Shown here piece after piece: positions 23,192 to 32,119 of a DNA stretch of 32,364 bases. The notes beneath the pieces were generated by a model, which ran no database searches, had not been told where the DNA came from, and was given only the letters and a program-made list of their open reading frames with translations. Source of the stretch: Thermoplasmatota archaeon (lineage in GTDB: Archaea; Thermoplasmatota; Penumbrarchaeia; Penumbrarchaeales; Penumbrarchaeaceae). Location of the stretch: the NCBI GenBank assembly GCA_965234725.1, contig CBDDUX010000082.1:1-32364 (forward strand), written 5' to 3'. The translations under genes were made by a program, and so were the position numbers. The number at the start of each line of letters is the position of its first letter. Position 1 is the first letter of the stretch.

Positions 23192-23426
23192 ACTTCTTGG
23201 GTCAATGAGGAGAATATGATTATGGGTATCAGTGTGTAACCATTGCGGGCCCAAGGAATATGGATAGGTTTCCAGTACAGTTCTGTTTTCGACTGACCTT
23301 TGAGGAATATACGGGTTTATGATCACAAAATGTGACCTTAGAAAGGAGATGTGTGAGTCAGTGTTCTGACCATGATCACAGAACGTATAAAGGGATAGTG
23401 GAATCTTCTCCGTTAACAGGATGTAC

Positions 23427-25217
23427 TCACTCTTCGACCAGATTATTCGTGCGCTTTCTCATCAAGGACCATACGACGGTGATCCCCAGGCCAGTGACGA
23501 CCATAGCCCCAACTACCGCTACGACTAAGATCATCACATTCAGCCAGCCGCTATCATCTTCAGCGGGTTCGGGTGATTGGTATCCAACGATGTCCTCAGC
23601 TTCCAGATACATCTGTTCGATCTCCTCAGCAGTGAGCTCAACATGGTAGTCTTCCGGAGTTGCGCTCCGGGTGGCCAGTCCAGTCCCCCGGAAACGATAT
23701 ACCAGGTTTCCCCAATCGTCATGGTCTGTCAATACTTCGTTGGCTGGACTGGGGTGTCTCACTTGATTGTTCAGGTTAATATTCACTCCCTCCGAGGTCA
23801 CGTTGTCGTTGTCCCAGTTTATCCGCATATCGACTCCATCGTTTGTGTACATAAGACCGTCCGGCCCGGTCCACACTGTCACTTCCGTAATGCCGATCCC
23901 ATCGTTTTCATTCAGGTTCGACTCGTCCAGGTCCCAGCAATTACCATGGGAATAGTCCAACGGCCGGTTCGGTTTCCATGAATTGAATTGGAAAGCATAG
24001 TTCATGATGCTCAGATAGTTCGGTTTGTAATTGACTTCGACATCTCCTCCGTGTTCTAGGCCGAGCGCATGGCCGAGCTCATGCATGAAGACTGCTGCCT
24101 GGCTCTTACGGTTTCCTCCGTTTTCCAATGCGCCGAAGGCGAGAATGAAGTCATCACAAGGGGCGCCTTCTGCCACACCAGGACAAGTGTAGTTTGGGGG
24201 ATTCAACCATATCTTATTGACGAACAAGCAGTACCTGAAAGCTAGTTCCTTGGCCTCCAGGGTCTTCGGGTTGGACCGCTCATCAGGAGTTCCAAAATTG
24301 ATCGCTTTTTGGAGATATAATCCCTCAAAACTTTCCATTATGCCTATTGCGGGTAAAGATTCATCGATTACAACATGCAGGTTGATGCCGTTCACCCCGT
24401 CCGGATTTGAGACAGGTGCATTCGCGAAGGCGTCTTTGACATCTTCGATGGCCTCCGGTATGGGACGTCGGCCGGTGTAGTAGTCGGCTTCGACGAATAC
24501 GTCCTTGTGTTCCGAGTCTGCGCCCAGCATGGGTAGGTCCAGGTCCACCGTTCCGTCCTTGTCGAGGTCGATGCCATAGATCTCCCACGAGTCCGGGAGG
24601 CCATCGCCGTCGGTATCCTTCTCGATGGTCACTGTTATTGAACCCTTGTTGTCCTGGAAGTAGGAGTCCGCTTGGGAGATGAACAGAAATCGGGCGTTCC
24701 TGGGTACTTCGATCCAGGAACCCGTCTTAGGCTTAATAGAGAAATCCTCCGGGATGTCAGTGGGTTCCTGGTTGAAATGTGTGGTCCCAGTATCTGCATC
24801 ATACATTCCGCCATCGATAGCCCCAGGTACCCTGTGTTCCTCACCGACGGACAGGAGTTGGCTATTCATACTGAACACACCGATCAGCCCTGTCACATCC
24901 CTATAGACGAGAGGCCTGCTGTCCCACCCAGCATCATTACATACCTCCCCTTTGAAACTGATACAAATGTTGTCTCCGGGAAGGAAGCCAAAAGCTTGAA
25001 GATCGACCATAGCAGGTGATTCGATCATGCCTACGCCGCCCTGATATTCTTCAGTGTGGAGATAGGTCCCTCTGACCGGGACATCGATCTCGGCAATTCC
25101 ATCCCCTGGACTACCAGATTCCGCCGCAACTTCCGTAACCTCTATCTGAAAAGGAAGCGAGCTCAGGACCAGCAAGAAGAGTAGTCCGATGATCGTAATT
25201 CGGCGTAAAGCGATCAT
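23427..25217 (-). CDS. membrane-anchored secreted zinc metalloprotease (metzincin-type, 596 aa)
   Basis: Signal peptide from ATG 25217; DTDGDGLPDSWE Ca-binding motif; HELGHALGLEH; Met-turn SIMNY; C-terminal TM plus RKR. Confidence 0.85.
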   Translation of the reverse strand: MIALRRITIIGLLFLLVLSSLPFQIEVTEVAAESGSPGDGIAEIDVPVRGTYLHTEEYQGGVGMIESPAMVDLQAFGFLPGDNICISFKGEVCNDAGWDSRPLVYRDVTGLIGVFSMNSQLLSVGEEHRVPGAIDGGMYDADTGTTHFNQEPTDIPEDFSIKPKTGSWIEVPRNARFLFISQADSYFQDNKGSITVTIEKDTDGDGLPDSWEIYGIDLDKDGTVDLDLPMLGADSEHKDVFVEADYYTGRRPIPEAIEDVKDAFANAPVSNPDGVNGINLHVVIDESLPAIGIMESFEGLYLQKAINFGTPDERSNPKTLEAKELAFRYCLFVNKIWLNPPNYTCPGVAEGAPCDDFILAFGALENGGNRKSQAAVFMHELGHALGLEHGGDVEVNYKPNYLSIMNYAFQFNSWKPNRPLDYSHGNCWDLDESNLNENDGIGITEVTVWTGPDGLMYTNDGVDMRINWDNDNVTSEGVNINLNNQVRHPSPANEVLTDHDDWGNLVYRFRGTGLATRSATPEDYHVELTAEEIEQMYLEAEDIVGYQSPEPAEDDSGWLNVMILVVAVVGAMVVTGLGITVVWSLMRKRTNNLVEE

Positions 25218-25582
25218 TCCCCTGACATCATCCTCTCGAAGGTCACACGATATCCTATGAGCGATACCCTGCTGATAACAGTGACCGTAACCTTCCCTCG
25301 ATAGATGTGGTTGAACCATTTGCCTGGAAGAGCCAGTCCACTTCTGGATCTCGATTTTTGAGGGCGGCCGGCCTAAAAAATGTTTATTTCTTCGCATACC
25401 CATGACGATACCCCTACTGGACCTTAAATGAGAAACCGATAGAAATAATCTGTTACATTTCGGTCCGACATTAAAGGAATAAAAAATTGACAGTGAACGA
25501 GTAGCTTTATTCAAAGATATTTCTTCTATTTTTTTCGTTAATGATCATTCCATGACATAAAACCACAATGGGATCCTTGCTG

Positions 25583-25700
25583 TGGGCAGAACAGGTCTCA
25601 TTGTGATACTCAGGTGATGATTAAGAAACGTTTATTGCACTCGAGATTTTATTGGTATTTTTATGAAATATATGAAATGTTGATGGCTCGCGATGGGGCC
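25583..25700 (+). repeat. 118-bp intergenic block Y, copy 1
   Basis: Ungapped match to 29345-29462, 95/118 by hand count. Confidence 0.9.
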
Positions 25701-25722
25701 TCGGATGGGTATAGGAATAATG

Positions 25723-25750
25723 GGTCCTATATCAAGGGTATAAGGACCCC
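25723..25750 (+). repeat. 28-bp block W (second copy at 28312-28339)
   Basis: GGTCCTATATCAAGGGTATAAGGACCCC vs GGTCCTATATCATGGGTATCAGAACCCC, 25/28. Confidence 0.7.
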
Positions 25751-25825
25751 CCTCACATCACGCACCCACCGGAAAGTTATATTCTCCACCCCCCATTACC
25801 CACTCAAGGTGCGGGATAGAGAAAG

Positions 25826-25879
25826 ATGTTCATCTACCAGTCAAACAAGCGGGGATTCCTCGATCCGGTCCTCAAATGA
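25826..25879 (+). pseudogene. possible 5' stub of a DUF2075-type helicase gene
   Basis: MFIYQSNKRGFLD resembles the MIVYxxxKxxFLxD N-terminus I recall for that family; TATA-like GAAAGTTATAT upstream; truncated after 17 codons. Confidence 0.3.
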
Positions 25880-26074
25880 TACAAATGAAAGATTCGCATA
25901 CCTCTCTATTCACATAATTAAAAAGGATAATATCATGATGAGACCTGATAATGATGAGAATGGATATTGGGTCTGATCAAAAAGGAAAATACACATGCCA
26001 ACAAAAAGGAACTTTTCCCACCTCCCGGAACGAATTCTCAAGTTTTTTAGTCCCATTACAGAGGTGAGGACCAT

Positions 26075-27130
26075 ATGAGTTCACGTAAAGATCAGGATAA
26101 GAAAAAAGATCCCGGAAAGGGGCAATTTCTTGTATATCAAGCCGAGGATGGGGCACTCAAACTGGAAGTGAGGCTGGAAAATGAGACAGTTTGGCTTTCT
26201 CAGAAGCTAATGGCCGAGCTATTCCAGAAGGATGTTCGGACCATAAATGAACACATACGGAATGTTTACGACGAGGGAGAACTTGATCCAGATTCAACTA
26301 TCCGGAAATTCCGGATAGTTCAAACCGAGGGCAGAAGACAGGTTGCCCGTTTGGTCGAATTCTACAATCTTGACATGATAATTTCAGTTGGATACCGTGT
26401 GAAAAGCCATGTTGCTACCAGATTCAGGATCTGGGCAACTCAGAAGCTGAAGGAATACATAATCAAAGGATTTGTCCTGGATGACGAGAGATTGAAAAAC
26501 CCGGATCAACCTTTCGATTATTTCGAAGAGTTAACACTCCGCATTCAGGACATAAGAACGTCCGAGCGACGCTTCTACCAGAAGATAACGGATATCTATG
26601 CAACAAGTATTGACTACGATCCAACAATGAAGATAAGTATTGATTTCTTCAAGACGGTTCAGAATAAAATGCACTGGGCCATTACAGGCCTAACTGCAGC
26701 CGAACTCATTCATTCCAGAGCGGATTCAACAAAGCACCATATGGGTTTGACAAATTACCGTGGAACAAAGGTGCGAAAACAGGATGCGATGATTGCAAAA
26801 AACTATCTTTCGGAGGATGAACTGTCAGCTCTGAATAATCTGGTCGAACAATATCTGATCTTTGCTGAAGGGCAGGCGATGCGCCGCATTCCGATGTACA
26901 TGAAGGATTGGATAAAGAAATTGGATGGCTTTCTATCCATCAATGATCGGGACATATTGAAAGATACCGGAAAAATATCTCATGAAATGGCGGAGCAACA
27001 GGCCAGAGATGAGTATGAGAAGTTCAATGCCAGAAGGATTGCGGAGATTAAGAATCACCTGAGTGACTTTGATCAATCGGTAAGGCAAATAGAAAGCGGG
27101 AAATCCAGAAAAAAGGATGAGGACACTTAG
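26075..27130 (+). CDS. rhuM: RhuM-family (Virulence_RhuM) DNA-binding protein
   Basis: ETVWLSQKLMAELF, YNLDMIISVGYRVKS, FRIWAT, IRTSERRFYQK, VQNKMHWA, AKNYL; GAGGTGA RBS. Confidence 0.92.
   Translation: MSSRKDQDKKKDPGKGQFLVYQAEDGALKLEVRLENETVWLSQKLMAELFQKDVRTINEHIRNVYDEGELDPDSTIRKFRIVQTEGRRQVARLVEFYNLDMIISVGYRVKSHVATRFRIWATQKLKEYIIKGFVLDDERLKNPDQPFDYFEELTLRIQDIRTSERRFYQKITDIYATSIDYDPTMKISIDFFKTVQNKMHWAITGLTAAELIHSRADSTKHHMGLTNYRGTKVRKQDAMIAKNYLSEDELSALNNLVEQYLIFAEGQAMRRIPMYMKDWIKKLDGFLSINDRDILKDTGKISHEMAEQQARDEYEKFNARRIAEIKNHLSDFDQSVRQIESGKSRKKDEDT
26296..26320. repeat. perfect 25-bp coding palindrome inside rhuM
   Basis: AACTATCCGGAA-A-TTCCGGATAGTT, encoding TIRKFRIV. Confidence 0.9.
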
Positions 27131-27160
27131 GACCTGTGGATTGGAAGGAATGGTCAATAT

Positions 27161-27240
27161 AGTGCCGGACAGGCCCAATGTATCGGATTTATTCAAGCTC
27201 TAAGGAGGTCCACGGGTTTTGGGGTGGGGCCTCGAATGGG
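27161..27240 (+). repeat. post-gene repeat Z, copy after rhuM
   Basis: AGTGCCGGACAGGCCC...CTCTAAGGAGGTCC...TGGGGCCTCGAATGGG; starts 31 bp after the stop. Confidence 0.8.
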
Positions 27241-27384
27241 CATGGGTGTAAATACCTTATTAAAAAGGTATTCCCCATACCAACAAATGGTGTTGAACTA
27301 CACGACATCATCAGAATTTGATAAATCATTATATAATCCCAATACAGATTCCAGGAACCATCCAATGAAAAGGGAAGTAACAAG

Positions 27385-27675
27385 ATGAACAATATCATGG
27401 AGATATTGGAAATATTGAATCAGGTCAAACCTGAAATTAAGACCAGATTCAAGGTTAAGAATATTGGAATATTCGGATCTTATGCCAGGAATGAAGAGAC
27501 CGAGGACAGTGATGTGGATATTCTTGTCGAGCTCGAAGAACCCATCGGTCTGGATCTTGTGGAGCTGATATTCTTCCTGGAGGAGAAATTGGGTAAGAAA
27601 GTCGATCTGGTCACGACAAAATCACTGAGATCGGAATTCCAGGAAGTTATAAGCAAAGAGGTGGTCTTCACTTGA
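27385..27675 (+). CDS. minimal nucleotidyltransferase (MNT/MntA-type antitoxin)
   Basis: IFGSYARNEETEDSDVDILVE, LGKKVDLVT. Confidence 0.92.
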   Translation: MNNIMEILEILNQVKPEIKTRFKVKNIGIFGSYARNEETEDSDVDILVELEEPIGLDLVELIFFLEEKLGKKVDLVTTKSLRSEFQEVISKEVVFT

Positions 27676-28007
27676 ACAGGACCAATTCTCATTTCTTAAG
27701 TGACATGAAAACCTCGATCGACAGGATCGAGGAATATACCCGGGAAATGGAATTGGAGGATCTCAGGGATGATCAGAAAACAATGGATGCAGTGATAAGG
27801 AATCTGGAGATCATCGGAGAAGCAGCGAGAAATCTGGATTCCGATATTCGTAAGGATCATCCCGCCATACCCTGGAGAAAGATAATCGGACTTAGAAACA
27901 TCATTTCACATGCGTATTTCGGAATCGATTGGGAGAATATCTGGAAGATAATAAGAGAAGATATTCCGGAATTCAGGGACGAACTGGAATCCATTCAGGT
28001 CGAATAA
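27672..28007 (+). CDS. HepT-like (DUF86) HEPN ribonuclease toxin
   Basis: DAVIRNLEIIGEA, IPW..GLRNIISHAYF (Rx4HxY). Confidence 0.92.
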   Translation: MNRTNSHFLSDMKTSIDRIEEYTREMELEDLRDDQKTMDAVIRNLEIIGEAARNLDSDIRKDHPAIPWRKIIGLRNIISHAYFGIDWENIWKIIREDIPEFRDELESIQVE

Positions 28008-28037
28008 TAATTCCGGGAAATTCAATCTCCATTTCAC

Positions 28038-28233
28038 AGTGCCGGACAGGTCCTATATTTTTGTTTTTTTTTAAAACTCTAAAGGAGGCCCTATATGTCT
28101 CGGATTGGGGCCTCGAGTTGGGTAAAATAGGTCTCGAAATAGGTCACTACTGACACCATAGGTGTCAGGGTGCGAAATGTCTCGGGACAGGGCAGGGGTG
28201 AATCGATGAGATCTATAATGCCAGAGGTCCTTC
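28038..28233 (+). repeat. post-gene repeat Z plus 106-bp block X (longest copy)
   Basis: Starts 31 bp after the HepT stop; 28128-28233 matches 30590-30695 at 94/106; hairpin CTGACACC-ATA-GGTGTCAG at 28150-28168. Confidence 0.9.
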
Positions 28234-28306
28234 TTCCACCCCAACTTGACATCACAGTTTGTGATTTCAAGTTCTCATGTTCATTTTCCGTAAGTTGAAA
28301 GCAGAA
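28229..28306 (-). pseudogene. isolated 26-codon ORF6N-domain fragment
   Basis: FCFQLTENEHENLKSQTVMSSWGGRR aligns with FCFQLNEEEFIKWRSQTVISN..GLRR of 29519-30439; contains a 31-bp palindrome at 28243-28273. Confidence 0.8.
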
Positions 28307-28522
28307 ATATTGGTCCTATATCATGGGTATCAGAACCCCTTTCATACCCAAACATCGAGAAATATTGATCACCAAAATCACGGCTTCTGCATATGCACCA
28401 CTGAGAAGAGCCCCTTTGTCCGCGAATGAGGTCCCTTTCATTGTTCATTTGATTCGATGAAGTGAAGGTTAAACATAATAATTAAAAGAAGAATATCATT
28501 TCAGTAACAGGGTAGTGTATAA

Positions 28523-28834
28523 ATGGAAGATATACTGAAGCAGATCATTGAAAGGATCGTTAACATAGTTGATCCAGATATGATCCTCCTCTTCGGATCC
28601 AGAGCTTCAGGGAAAGAAAGTGACGATAGCGATATTGATCTTCTTATAATAAAATCCGGATTGAAGAATTCAAGGGAATTGGCAAAGAAGGTCTATTCCT
28701 CCCTTTCCGGTATCGGTGTTCCGGTCGATTTTATATTGGTTGACAGGAGAAGAATGGATGAACATCTGGACGATCCTTATATGATATACGGGCAGGCGTT
28801 AAAGGAGGGTAAGACGCTCTATGCAAAGGCTTGA
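28523..28834 (+). CDS. minimal nucleotidyltransferase (second MNT)
   Basis: ILLFGSRASG..SDIDLLII, PVDFI. Confidence 0.9.
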   Translation: MEDILKQIIERIVNIVDPDMILLFGSRASGKESDDSDIDLLIIKSGLKNSRELAKKVYSSLSGIGVPVDFILVDRRRMDEHLDDPYMIYGQALKEGKTLYAKA

Positions 28835-29237
28835 GGATGTCAATATATGGATGGCCCGGTCCCTCAGCAACCTTGAAAAGGCCAGGATCAAAAGGGAGGA
28901 TAATAAGATCCTCTTTGAGGACCTCTGTTTTGACATACAGCAGTCTGCGGAAAAAGCATTGAAAGCGGTTTGCATAAAAGAAGGTATAATCTTCAAGAGG
29001 ACCCATGATATTTCATATCTTATCGATCTGGTCGAGAACAGTGGAATCGATGTATTCGATGTTGTCAAAAAGGGAAGGTACCTCACTCAATATGCGGTTG
29101 AAACCAGATATCCTGGTGTTTACGATCCGGTTAAAAAGGATGAATATGAAGAAGCTTTGAATGATGCTCAGGAGATATACGAATGGGCAAAAGATATTAC
29201 CGGATTTGAGATCCCGGATGAACCTGAAGAAGAGTAA
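28821..29237 (+). CDS. HEPN domain protein (QQxxEKxLKA subtype)
   Basis: LCFDIQQSAEKALKAV, THDI, YAVETRYP. Confidence 0.9.
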   Translation: MQRLEDVNIWMARSLSNLEKARIKREDNKILFEDLCFDIQQSAEKALKAVCIKEGIIFKRTHDISYLIDLVENSGIDVFDVVKKGRYLTQYAVETRYPGVYDPVKKDEYEEALNDAQEIYEWAKDITGFEIPDEPEEE

Positions 29238-29266
29238 ACCGGATCAATATTCATGTAATGGATGAC

Positions 29267-29462
29267 AGTGCCGAACAGGCCCAAGGTTTTGGATCTTATA
29301 CATGCTCCAATGTGTTCCCCAGGTCTCGATATGGAGCCTCGAGATGGGTAGAATAGGTCTCGACGTGATACATAGATGAGAGTTAAGTAACGTTTATTGC
29401 ACTTGAGATTATAGTGGTATTTTTATGAATAATATGAAATGTTTTTATCTCACGATGGGACC
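29267..29462 (+). repeat. post-gene repeat Z running into block Y, copy 2
   Basis: AGTGCCGAACAGGCCC starts 30 bp after the HEPN stop; core TGGAGCCTCGAGATGGGTAGAATAGGTCTCGA at 29332; 29345-29462 matches 25583-25700. Confidence 0.88.
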
Positions 29463-29518
29463 GTGATTGAAAAATTAGAATTCTTCAAGATGAGTTTTTT
29501 AACCAAACATAATCATTT

Positions 29519-30439
29519 TTAATTCAACAACTTCTCTATTCTTGAGAGGACCTCTATTGAATCGATCTCCATTTTGGAAAAGGCGAACCATTTCTTTCCA
29601 AGGTCTTTCAAGGAAGCTCCGAAATGGTAGATCTCTGAATTGTCGATTATTATGAATCTATCATGTGAAAGATCGAATTTCTCTATTTTCAGGTTCGGAT
29701 ATTGTTGATTGAATTTAAACAGATCAAGTTTAACTGCATCTGGAATCCTATTTGTCAGGATCTTGACATCTACACCCTTCCTCCTTTTTGATAGCAAAGT
29801 GAAAACGCTATCGTCAATGTAGTTGTCAATGATCATGATGTTGTCTGAAGCGGTCCTTATGAGGTCGGAAATGAATTGGTATGCATCATAGATCTGACCA
29901 TCGAAGAATATTCCCTGTCTTGGTTTGATGTCCTCGATCTCTATTATCGATAGAACCTCTTCCATCTTTCTTTCTGTTGTGATCTGCCTTTCTTCAAGAT
30001 TATTCAATCTTTGAAATATACCTGCATTGATGGTGGTCAACTTTCTCATTTCAACAAACGCTCTCATGATGCCAATATTCACTTCGATAGCTTTCTTACT
30101 TCTCAGAACAGATGAAAGCATTGCAATCCCCTGTTCGGAAAAAACATATGGTGGTCTCCTGAGTCCCATTCTATCCGAATTGGAAATAACAGTTTGTGAT
30201 CTCCATTTTATGAATTCCTCCTCATTTAATTGGAAACAGAAATCCTCCGGAAATCTCTCCTTATTCCTCTTTACTGCTTGATTAAGTGCTCCGGTATTTA
30301 CACCGTATAAAAAGGAAAGGTCCCTATCCATCATTACGAGAATATTTCGGAACTCGAAGATCCTACCATAAAACTCATTTTTGATCCGCGATGAACCATT
30401 ATCCAATTCATCTGTAACTTCTTCGATCTTGGAAGACAT
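29519..30439 (-). CDS. ORF6N DNA-binding domain protein with C-terminal PLD-like domain
   Basis: VMMDRDL..LYGV..LNQAVKRNKERFPEDFCFQL, PYVFSEQGIAMLSSVL; IIDNYID and HDRFIIID..GASLKDLGKK. Confidence 0.88.
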   Translation of the reverse strand: MSSKIEEVTDELDNGSSRIKNEFYGRIFEFRNILVMMDRDLSFLYGVNTGALNQAVKRNKERFPEDFCFQLNEEEFIKWRSQTVISNSDRMGLRRPPYVFSEQGIAMLSSVLRSKKAIEVNIGIMRAFVEMRKLTTINAGIFQRLNNLEERQITTERKMEEVLSIIEIEDIKPRQGIFFDGQIYDAYQFISDLIRTASDNIMIIDNYIDDSVFTLLSKRRKGVDVKILTNRIPDAVKLDLFKFNQQYPNLKIEKFDLSHDRFIIIDNSEIYHFGASLKDLGKKWFAFSKMEIDSIEVLSRIEKLLN

Positions 30440-30551
30440 TCTGTTTCACCGTATCTTCTTCTCTGTTGAGGTGTGTGTTATGTAGGTTTGTATTTATCTG
30501 AATCCGGGGGAGGGATCTATAAAAAGTGAATTAATCCCGATTTACTCTTTT

Positions 30552-30695
30552 GGGTTTTTGATTTATAAAAGACCTCCAAGGAGGTCCTCTAGGTCTCGAC
30601 ATAGGTCACCACTGACACCATGGGTGTCAGGGTGAAAAATGTCTCGGGACAGGGGAGGAATGAATCGTTGAAATCTGTAATGCTAGAGGTCCTTC
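30552..30695 (+). repeat. internally deleted repeat Z plus block X, copy 2
   Basis: GACCTCC-AA-GGAGGTC hairpin at 30571-30586; CTGACACC-ATG-GGTGTCAG at 30612-30630; lacks the segment between the two GTCTCG motifs of the 28038 copy. Confidence 0.88.
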
Positions 30696-30727
30696 ATTGC
30701 GAATTCCAGATATTTATTATGATATGA

Positions 30728-30799
30728 TCAGTGATCTGAATCTCTGTATGTGAAGATAGCCTTCAATTCTTCCAATGATCTACGAGCTATCGGCTCCAT
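30728..30799 (-). pseudogene. 23-codon stub of the gene coupled to the AbiEi-like gene (probable collapsed partner toxin)
   Basis: GGTGA RBS and ATG overlapping the upstream 3' end; MEPIARRSLEELKAIFTYRDSDH*. Confidence 0.5.
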
Positions 30800-31772
30800 A
30801 ATTCTTCACCATTTCAATTAGAAGGTCCTTCCCCGAATAACCCAATCCTGCTACATCAAGAACAGTCTGTTCTTTGGATGTGATCCTTATTCCATCTATG
30901 ACAATGGAATCATCATTCACATCTCTGTCAGGGTTGAATATCTTAAGTTTGATCCCTTTGTCATTGTTTGAGGAGAACTCCTTCCTTATGATCTCTCTGG
31001 TTTCAATGTCACTGATATAACACTGGACAAGATCGCTTCTTATCCCCAACCCGAAGTGCAAATTGGAGGCAATGTAGGCACACATGACAGCAGGCAATCT
31101 CCTCCTTTCAGACCAATCTGTCAAGGTTCTTGCCAGGTCGTGGGTTGAATCGAATGAAGTTACTATTTCAAAATCTTCCAGGTCCTTCAAAGGCCTTTCC
31201 CAGGCTACTGCATTCAACAAATTATCCAGGTCTGCGATCTCGATAATGTTATTTTTTCTGTCTACAATATCTCTTGAGATCAAATTGGTGATAACACCAT
31301 GAGTCCAGCCATATGATATTCCCTCGGATCTTGAAATGCTTCTGATAGAGCATGGTGATCTTTTGATAAGATGAAGTATGATCCTCCAAGCTTTTTCGGA
31401 TGTTAATTTACCCCTGGGTCTTTTGTTTTCCTTTTGAATGAATATGTTTTCGGGAAGATGAATTATATCTATGTTCAGCTGACTTGCTCCTCTCTGGATG
31501 GAATCAGGGATGATCCTACCGGCAACAATAGTGTCGGTTACATTGATCTCAAGTTCTCTGGCCAAGAGAAGATGGGATAACTTCTCCCAGGATGCTGTAT
31601 GACATAGTTCAACTAGCACCTTTCTATTTTCATCCTCTATCAATATGTCAATACGAACCGGAAGATCATTTGAGATGGGAGTTTCGAAATGAAATCTCGC
31701 TCTGGATGTGAGGTCAAGGTTCTTTATCAATACCTCCTTCAAGAGGTTTTCATCCCGATCTCTGGTTTTCAT
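30780..31772 (-). CDS. AbiEi-like (type IV TA antitoxin-like) protein: degenerate PD-(D/E)xK-like N-terminus, wHTH, AbiEi-type C-terminus
   Basis: RIDILIE..VLVEL; SIRSISRSEGISYGWTHGVITNL HTH; DGIRITSKEQTVLDV. Confidence 0.6.
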   Translation of the reverse strand: MKTRDRDENLLKEVLIKNLDLTSRARFHFETPISNDLPVRIDILIEDENRKVLVELCHTASWEKLSHLLLARELEINVTDTIVAGRIIPDSIQRGASQLNIDIIHLPENIFIQKENKRPRGKLTSEKAWRIILHLIKRSPCSIRSISRSEGISYGWTHGVITNLISRDIVDRKNNIIEIADLDNLLNAVAWERPLKDLEDFEIVTSFDSTHDLARTLTDWSERRRLPAVMCAYIASNLHFGLGIRSDLVQCYISDIETREIIRKEFSSNNDKGIKLKIFNPDRDVNDDSIVIDGIRITSKEQTVLDVAGLGYSGKDLLIEMVKNYGADSS

Positions 31773-31840
31773 AATGGGTATCGGTAATTAGTGTGAGTTA
31801 TATATAATTATCAGTGATATGTATATCTGTTATTGGAGAT

Positions 31841-32106
31841 ATGTATGATGAATTGTCAGTGATATACTTCGATCTACATTTTCGAATATTTCTTCTTCTC
31901 TTGAAAGTATAGAATTGATATTCTCCCAGATCACAAGAGATTCCGAATATCGGAGGATCGTCACAGATTTCACCCAACGAGCAAAGACGGACCAATCTCT
32001 AAAGGGCATCAAGGGCCTCTATGGAAAAGATCCTAGAAGAGCAGAGAGGATCGCCGACGACATCATCAAGAGTTTCAGTTTCCTGATGGGGCCTCGATCG
32101 GGGTAA
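31841..32106 (+). pseudogene. frameshifted or collapsed gene remnant, divergent from the AbiEi-like gene
   Basis: GGAG plus ATG (MYDELSVI) in one frame, protein-like SDILRS...DDIIKSFSFL in another; the 3' end runs into the repeat core at 32085. Confidence 0.4.
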
Positions 32107-32119
32107 AATAGGTCTCGAA
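32085..32119 (+). repeat. core of repeat Z
   Basis: GATGGGGCCTCGATCGGGGTAAAATAGGTCTCGAA matches 28104-28138. Confidence 0.8.

Follow-up and report, generated by a model that had tools for sequence, protein, structure and literature searches.

A conserved DNA palindrome at one codon position of RhuM and ORF6N genes, possibly a cis-acting site of the genes that carry it

We examined a 32,364-nt stretch of DNA from a Thermoplasmatota archaeon (the window), in which a rhuM gene and an intact ORF6N gene carry palindromic sequence in the parts that encode their putative DNA-binding modules, and in which fragments of further ORF6N genes carry related palindromes (Table 1). The original prediction had placed three palindromes here, in rhuM, in the intact ORF6N gene and in one ORF6N fragment, and direct reading of the sequence found each of them where it had been reported. 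The names given to the two genes also held in profile searches: the rhuM product matched Virulence_RhuM (PF13310) over residues 74-321 (E 8.3e-113; 376.3 bits, cut-off 33.7), and that of the intact ORF6N gene matched PF10543 (E 3.5e-29; 101.4 bits, cut-off 27.8), with a PLDc_2 match that stayed below its cut-off. Both products matched the PADLOC candidate defence model PDC-S05 (E 1.6e-145 for RhuM and 8.1e-111 for ORF6N-PLD), which is itself defined by protein models only. In a structure comparison of its model, the C-terminus of ORF6N-PLD resembled Nuc/NucT/SauUSI (Z 10-12.6), and one PDC-S05 model combines a RhuM-type N-terminal module (N-module) with a PLD C-terminus. The dead ORF6N fragment matched no Pfam family, its assignment being made by translation alone.

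Table 1. Palindrome-bearing genes, gene remnants and palindromes in the window
Feature	Position	Strand	Description
rhuM, 351 aa	26075..27130	+	Open reading frame (ORF); N-terminal winged-helix-like module, then RhuM domain
rhuM palindrome, perfect 12-1-12	26296..26320		AACTATCCGGAA-A-TTCCGGATAGTT; in frame, encodes TIRKFRIV = T75-V82
ORF6N-PLD gene, 306 aa	29519..30439	-	ORF6N domain and C-terminal PLD-type nuclease fold
Intact-ORF6N palindrome, degenerate 11-3-11 with 2 mismatches	30181..30205		Encodes W79-S86
Dead ORF6N fragment, ~28 codons	28228..28315	-	Reads DQYFCFQLTENEHENLKSQTVMSSWGGRR, unrelated after; adjoins repeated intergenic module
Fragment palindrome, 14-3-14 with 1 mismatch	28243..28273		Inside dead ORF6N fragment
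Third ORF6N remnant	23251..23345	+	In-frame TGA (RFPVQFCFRLTFEEYTGL*SQNVTLE); sequence-search match E 3.1e-5
Decayed ORF6N palindrome copy	23315..23343		TCACA-AAA-TGTGA core and a few outer pairs left; fold -4.6 kcal/mol, z -2.3

The rhuM and dead-fragment palindromes were the top two in a scan of the whole window. Folded as a single-stranded DNA hairpin, the rhuM palindrome reached -10.4 kcal/mol (z -4.6), and the fragment palindrome reached -10.2 kcal/mol (z -4.4). However, first-order Markov shuffles of the window scored at least 12 in 6/100 cases and at least 11 in 21/100, and as such scores can be reached in this way, each window palindrome is unremarkable when taken alone; it is the comparison across the two families, given below, that makes them more than chance. 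Across the 3.54 Mb of the window's own genome, only 27 palindromes score at least 11, two of them being the rhuM and dead-fragment copies. Extra copies were sought with a half-site matrix built from the coding ORF6N palindromes, which has a background of 26 matches per 3.5 Mb in this genome; the fragment palindrome was its top match in the whole genome, and the palindrome of the intact ORF6N gene, whose score of 5 is among the weakest of 102 ORF6N segments, was the sixth-best. Within the window, rhuM thus has an intact site and a dead ORF6N piece retains its palindrome, but little is left of the one in the intact ORF6N gene. It had been argued that compensatory change is visible between the two ORF6N copies, which differ in arm sequence; because the palindrome of the intact gene is degenerate, this argument is weak within the window, but it proved true at the level of the family.

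For that comparison, RhuM genes were taken from the class and phylum to which the window belongs, together with 80 loci spread over many phyla of Bacteria and Archaea (the best 80 of 606 confirmed stretches). ORF6N genes came from the class, from 80 metagenome loci (the best 80 of 590) and from 80 viral loci; the viral loci were highly redundant and were collapsed to distinct segments. A site was called palindromic if its best score at the codon-aligned position was at least 8, which applied to 81 of the 94 RhuM segments from Bacteria and Archaea (64 with perfect arms) and to 92 of the 102 distinct ORF6N segments (48 with perfect arms). Arm length ranged from 9 to 15 bp in RhuM and from 9 to 19 bp in ORF6N; in both families the palindrome spanned 25-31 bp and its centre was A/T-rich. 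The codon phase of the centre was constant throughout (81/81 RhuM, 92/92 ORF6N) and, among genes having any palindrome, the top one fell in the same codon bins in 74/78 RhuM and 84/88 ORF6N genes. Elsewhere in the genes, palindromes of at least 8 were found only 10 times in 87.7 kb of RhuM and 11 times in 55.6 kb of ORF6N sequence. The remaining 13/94 RhuM and 10/102 ORF6N genes, the intact gene of the window included, had lost the palindrome although the gene showed no obvious decay, and four more distant N-module relatives from one Bacteroidota genome (L292-L295) had no palindrome at the site.

Arm sequences varied widely among genes, and the encoded peptides followed them, reading for example TIRKFRIV, TVKKFLTV, TCAKFAQV or SVVKNFFTTA in RhuM and LRSQIVTS, LRFQNGTS or LVSQNAIP in ORF6N. 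The suggestion that this segment is the variable part of both families was therefore borne out for RhuM, with the consensus T-x-x-K-F-x-x-V, and only in part for ORF6N, in which L-R-S-Q-x-V-T-S is fairly conserved. Five archaeal ORF6N genes of the window's class (L004, L008, L009, L011 and L015) had two palindromic units in frame, the additional one lying 39 nt upstream of the main unit; their proteins read LKSQIVTS...LKSQTVTS, the copy closer to the GGRR motif usually being the better palindrome. Palindrome duplications other than these tandems also occurred.

Excess symmetry was evident in both families when the segments were scored against synonymous controls. The mean best score was 10.2 in RhuM, as against 4.6 with uniform synonymous codons or 5.2 with pooled codon usage, and 11.0 in ORF6N, as against 4.8 or 5.2; individually, 84/94 RhuM and 91/102 ORF6N genes had p<=0.05 against synonymous redraws. 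The RhuM register pairs third codon positions with each other, and these were complementary in 88/92 and 90/92 cases, with several pair types, where the column frequencies predicted 54.4 and 42.2, respectively. One and the same peptide, TIRKFRIV, was spelled by three different, perfectly paired codon sets. Chance and a by-product of the peptide were both rejected on the strength of the synonymous controls and the third-position pairs. The claim that the DNA symmetry itself is kept is thus strongly supported, with arms covarying in both families even at synonymous sites, and the comparison of sequences shows that in both gene families a palindrome in the DNA is held under constraint at a single codon position. 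Here constraint at the nucleotide level prevails unusually clearly over the choice of codon and peptide, with covariation of paired synonymous sites and with amino-acid pairs that obey base pairing.

Such a constraint could act through the transcript if the palindrome formed an mRNA hairpin, within the coding sequence and sometimes in a 5' leader, by which translation or stability of a toxic product was controlled. Its stem would be stable, and some of the non-coding copies described below could fall in a 5' leader. However, the 936 paired positions of the RhuM arms comprised 919 Watson-Crick, 3 G-T, 7 A-C and 7 other pairs, and the ORF6N arms comprised 1187 Watson-Crick, 10 G-T, 24 A-C and 24 other pairs. 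Pooled over the 2181 pairs of both families, 13 G-T stand against 31 A-C pairs, which is no sign of sense-strand G-U tolerance, and no Rfam match at E<=1 was found within positions 25500-31000 of the window. On these two grounds, the constraint acts on DNA and not on mRNA. Both loop orientations also occur, and identical copies are present in either orientation in unrelated phage DNA. We consider an mRNA hairpin a very unlikely explanation.

We next consider where the palindrome lies in the protein. In the predicted model of RhuM (predicted local distance difference test, pLDDT, 83), a helix-turn-helix at residues 43-66 precedes a beta-hairpin with strands 76-85 and 88-97, and the palindrome encodes the first of these strands, right after the helix-turn-helix. 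In the model of the window's ORF6N protein (pLDDT 82), the residues that it encodes close helix 73-82 and continue into a loop of low confidence. Both N-modules matched the same winged-helix-type structures, namely the DdrC N-terminal domain (Z 7.8 and 4.5 for the two models), pSK1 Par (7.5 and 4.6), Dachshund/Ski (6.1 and 5.7 for Dachshund) and CpGV Orf22-N. As a sign that RhuM-N and ORF6N belong to one superfamily, this common list of structural neighbours of the models is suggestive only. Searching the PDB by sequence with the RhuM and ORF6N profiles returned nothing relevant.

The reading that we tentatively favour is that selection may maintain the in-gene palindrome as a cis-acting DNA site, to which the winged-helix-like domain of the gene's own product probably binds. 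The conserved symmetry probably serves a site that works at the level of DNA and not by way of the protein, and a dyad-symmetric site, as operators have, was found in both families. The palindrome would then be a putative operator or anchor for the winged-helix-like module, presumed to be dimeric, that the same gene encodes. Autoregulation could take the form of an intragenic roadblock, or could be exerted jointly with a promoter-proximal copy in some ORF6N genes.

Copies of the latter kind were found with the half-site matrix. A second palindrome lay upstream in 17/106 distinct ORF6N loci, in 15 of these at 237-296 nt before the coding copy; downstream copies were present in only 4/102 ORF6N loci, just past the stop codon. 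In 11 of the 12 ORF6N loci checked, the centre of the upstream copy was 21-70 nt before the predicted ATG. The sequence on either side of the upstream copies bore no relation to that around the coding copies. L178 and L192 had identical upstream and coding palindromes. As they cluster at this distance from the ATG and keep the family consensus, the upstream copies look regulatory rather than like random scarring, and the idea of a self-encoded operator, raised in the original prediction, gains some support from them. No promoter-proximal copy was found in the window's genome, and promoter scans on three loci did no better than on shuffles. RhuM-type palindromes were also seen in non-coding DNA just upstream of intact rhuM genes in L289 (centre ~277 nt before the coding palindrome) and L078 (275 nt); these were of a different arm type or had 17-bp arms. 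In L073, L087 and L106, ORF6N-looking palindromes (GGTTACAAATTGTCACC and similar) were located ~1.15-1.35 kb downstream of the RhuM palindrome, which suggests that RhuM and ORF6N genes are neighbours at these loci.

Palindromes of these families also stand free of any such gene. The exact rhuM 25-mer, with either centre letter, was found in 62 viral contigs, 17 times in a RhuM coding context and 45 times free-standing, and free exact copies were present in proviruses as well. The free copies occupied unrelated, mostly intergenic places, one per phage record, with sharp boundaries and coding-like flanking bases; 13 came after a DNA methylase gene and others were near Q, Rha, small terminase, TnpB or tail genes. 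A search of annotated phages with one such context gave a single partial match, under a methyltransferase gene. A second RhuM palindrome type was found in 20 contigs, six of them in a coding context by a scripted test and a seventh (L379) by eye, and the commonest ORF6N type in 12 contigs, comprising nine coding copies, one just before the ribosome-binding site of an ORF6N gene and two orphans. In two viral contigs (L373 and L387), two RhuM-type palindromes of different arm types overlapped in tandem in non-coding DNA, with the peptide reading TVAKFTTVRNFRTV. In unrelated sediment metagenomes, contigs of other organisms matched the window only over the palindromes, at 26295-26332 and 28236-28273, and diverged on both sides.

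The free copies allowed a comparison of decay, for which we searched with two arm pairs left free to vary. Both pairs were complementary in 29/30 coding and in 54/71 free copies, and a mismatch was thus present in 1/30 and 17/71, respectively. Judged from these sequences, free copies decay and coding copies are maintained, which argues for selection tied to the gene.

This result bears on the possibility that the palindrome is functionless and perpetuates itself, being trapped in an essential part of the gene, where its deletion would shift the frame, and corrected by intrastrand template switching, with arms that evolve in concert and a peptide that merely follows. Quasi-palindrome template-switch mutagenesis has reportedly been studied by Ripley and by the Lovett laboratory, and inversions at hairpins occur in chloroplasts. 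Template switching and hairpin-loop inversion would account for arms that change in concert, for loop alleles that are reverse complements and for symmetry that is perfect even where positions are neutral; they are known as a source of mutational hotspots, and are not known to maintain one palindrome at a fixed codon position of gene families across domains of life. The Watson-Crick symmetry seen here is perfect even at variable and synonymous positions. Reverse-complement loop variants were both present (ATC 8, GAT 7), rare alleles resembled flipped loops (S-H-F and S-Q-N, S-R-F and S-Q-I), and the genes that lost the palindrome without obvious decay likewise favour this explanation. However, mutational drive alone should keep free copies at least as well as coding ones, which is not what was seen. 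The near-universal occurrence in constant register across Bacteria, Archaea, phages and two families, and the non-coding copies at a regulatory position, also speak against it, and the correction rates that it would need are those of the E. coli literature. We regard a purely self-perpetuating palindrome as quite unlikely. With a selected DNA site as the favoured reading, hairpin-templated correction probably acts on top of selection, given the perfect symmetry at variable and synonymous positions, the reverse-complement loop alleles and the in-frame tandem duplications.

Several observations weigh against a site bound by the protein that it helps to encode. A promoter-proximal copy was missing from 89/106 ORF6N and 69/70 RhuM loci, and for this reason the role of a promoter operator cannot be general. 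The intact ORF6N gene of the window does without a good palindrome, its fold of -3.0 kcal/mol (z -0.8) being matched by 43/200 shuffles. The N-module was encoded by 0/5 phage records with a free copy, only two of these records being at least 90 % complete. The fold-match Z scores of the N-modules were all below 8 and may reflect a mere common arrangement, and profile comparison gave no support for homology of RhuM-N and ORF6N (hhalign probability 5.7 % and 2.2 %, over the helix-turn-helix only); the equivalence of the RhuM and ORF6N palindrome sites is on both counts no better than plausible. Operators can normally do without perfect symmetry across 12-19 bp where the bases vary among orthologues. 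Finally, some non-coding copies had longer arms, of 17-19 bp, which fit a hairpin process better than a protein site.

The last of these points favours a structure-forming element, that is, a hairpin or cruciform without a sequence-specific partner that pauses replication or transcription, or serves as a preferred breakpoint for recombination, deletion or cassette exchange, and that the families tolerate or exploit. Covariation of the arms at every position, with the sequence otherwise free and the centre rich in A/T, would be expected of such an element. The 39-nt in-frame tandems in the five archaeal ORF6N genes and the other duplications are consistent with it, as are gene remnants that are centred on the palindrome, both in the window and upstream of intact genes (L289, L002), and the exact rhuM copies standing alone in phage DNA (45/62), as if deletions ended at the base of the hairpin. 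It is harder to reconcile with upstream ORF6N copies that cluster before the ATG and keep the family consensus, or with free copies that decay more than coding ones. In a max-chi-square search for recombination breakpoints at the palindrome, the signal was swamped by rate differences between domains. Overall, we consider it somewhat unlikely that structure alone accounts for the palindrome.

We also evaluated recombination at the palindrome. A site-specific recombinase could use it as an attachment (att) core or inverton arm, by which elements integrate or part of the gene inverts. The dyad symmetry of ~9-7-9 resembles recombinase core sites in general, free exact copies occur in proviruses, and according to PMC9881135, RhuM genes are enriched beside hsdS genes that are targets of inversion. 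However, none of the 73 ORFs within 700 nt of free copies belonged to an integrase or recombinase family, inverted alleles were found in 0/9 coding ORF6N copies, with both gene halves on one strand in 9/9, and arms differ widely among genes. A phage attachment site was rejected on the first of these results, and a programmed inversion (inverton or shufflon) on the first two, in what is a small sample. We consider a recombination or attachment site highly improbable. The tandem duplications and free-standing copies leave some probability to the hairpin or recombination site of the original prediction.

The further proposal of a device that diversifies the recognition peptide within populations, by frequent flipping or template switching, gained no support from the comparison of alleles. 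Both centre letters do occur, as K or N in RhuM and I or F in ORF6N (centre A 31, T 25 in ORF6N), and some loops form reverse-complement pairs. However, in a phage cluster with 13 flank haplotypes the centre changed only ~2 times on the tree and never within identical flanks, and the coding copies were collinear as described above. No variant was seen at the palindrome sites in contigs of the likely source sequencing run, which cannot show rare alleles. We consider a diversifying device extremely unlikely.

A bolder version of the favoured site would be that the coding sequence of each RhuM or ORF6N gene contains the very site to which its winged-helix module binds, be it as duplex or as hairpin, a reading that we hold to be doubtful and put forward as unlikely. 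If it were true, the wing peptide and the site would be written by the same bases and would change together. The in-gene copy would mark self, as anchor or autorepressor, and identical phage copies would be non-self targets or decoys in an arms race.

A cis element inside coding sequence is of a known kind. The textbook examples lac O2 inside lacZ and gal OI inside galE are likewise dyad-symmetric sites within coding sequence, sometimes with a promoter-proximal copy a few hundred bp off. The palindrome described here differs from them in its conserved codon position within the gene's own putative DNA-binding module, in two whole families, and in a near-perfect symmetry over 10-19 bp whose sequence drifts with compensating changes; most genes, moreover, are without a promoter copy. 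Selfish palindromic elements that lie in frame within genes, such as Rickettsia palindromic elements, and REP elements are also palindromic DNA found both inside coding sequence and free between genes, whereas the present unit is only 25-31 bp long, encodes an integral strand of the fold in nearly all members and occurs once per phage record, not as a high-copy repeat dispersed over the genome. Toxin-antitoxin operons such as YefM-YoeB (PMC1802561) repress themselves at paired palindromes, the control of a toxic module resting there too on a DNA-binding part that acts near its own promoter. The likeness ends there, as RhuM and ORF6N are single polypeptides with the site inside the coding sequence and no antitoxin known.

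We found no description of a RhuM or ORF6N palindrome in the literature, our search having covered sources other than subscription journals and supplements. The new findings are the RhuM palindromes, the covariation at synonymous sites, the case for constraint on DNA and not on RNA, the copies near promoters and those standing free, and the faster decay of free copies. A conserved version that drifts and yet stays symmetric, in the putative DNA-binding module of defence genes, is not a known one. Genes of both families abound in restriction-modification operons, defence islands and prophages. An element conserved in coding sequence across Bacteria, Archaea and phages offers an experimental handle, since it can be altered while the protein stays the same. 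It also calls for caution in annotation, since short intergenic palindromes in phages and the 'conserved motifs' of these Pfam families may reflect selection at the level of DNA and not of protein. As to function, RhuM is called a predicted toxin domain of defence loci linked to restriction-modification in PMC3710099. In a preprint (10.1101/2024.09.26.614923), a Virulence_RhuM PDC-S05 gene is reported to reduce the plating of T7 and T5 ~1000-fold and that of T4 ~10-fold on E. coli B.

In E. coli, a match to a Klebsiella rhuM gene was present in 4752/5426 complete genomes, and full-length rhuM (at least 80 % of the Klebsiella query) in 843 genomes. Among the matches listed, 7/12 were a short piece annotated as 'rhuM: RhuM family protein'; in L296 this piece is a 162-nt pseudogene without the N-terminus, and hence without the palindrome site.

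The palindrome-bearing genes of the window lie in a cassette-like array (25571-32118), from rhuM to the ORF6N gene, in which each unit is followed by repeated intergenic modules. One repeat module (AGTGCCGGACAGGCCC...) lies at 27161, 28038 and 29267, and a 41-nt module at 28097, 29323 and 32078; a 106-nt repeat is found at 28128 and 30590 (D2 = 28128-28233), and a 130-nt repeat at 25571 and 29333. Between the palindrome-bearing genes are two pairs of the nucleotidyltransferase/HEPN type, NTP_transf_2 with HepT at 27385-28007 and Polbeta with HEPN at 28523-29237, and the transferases of both pairs match PADLOC PDC-S09. On the minus strand, 23427-25514 encodes a 695-aa protein with weak zinc-metalloprotease and TSP3-repeat signals, below cut-offs, and 30780-31772 a 330-aa protein with a weak HVO_A0114-type match, likewise below cut-off.

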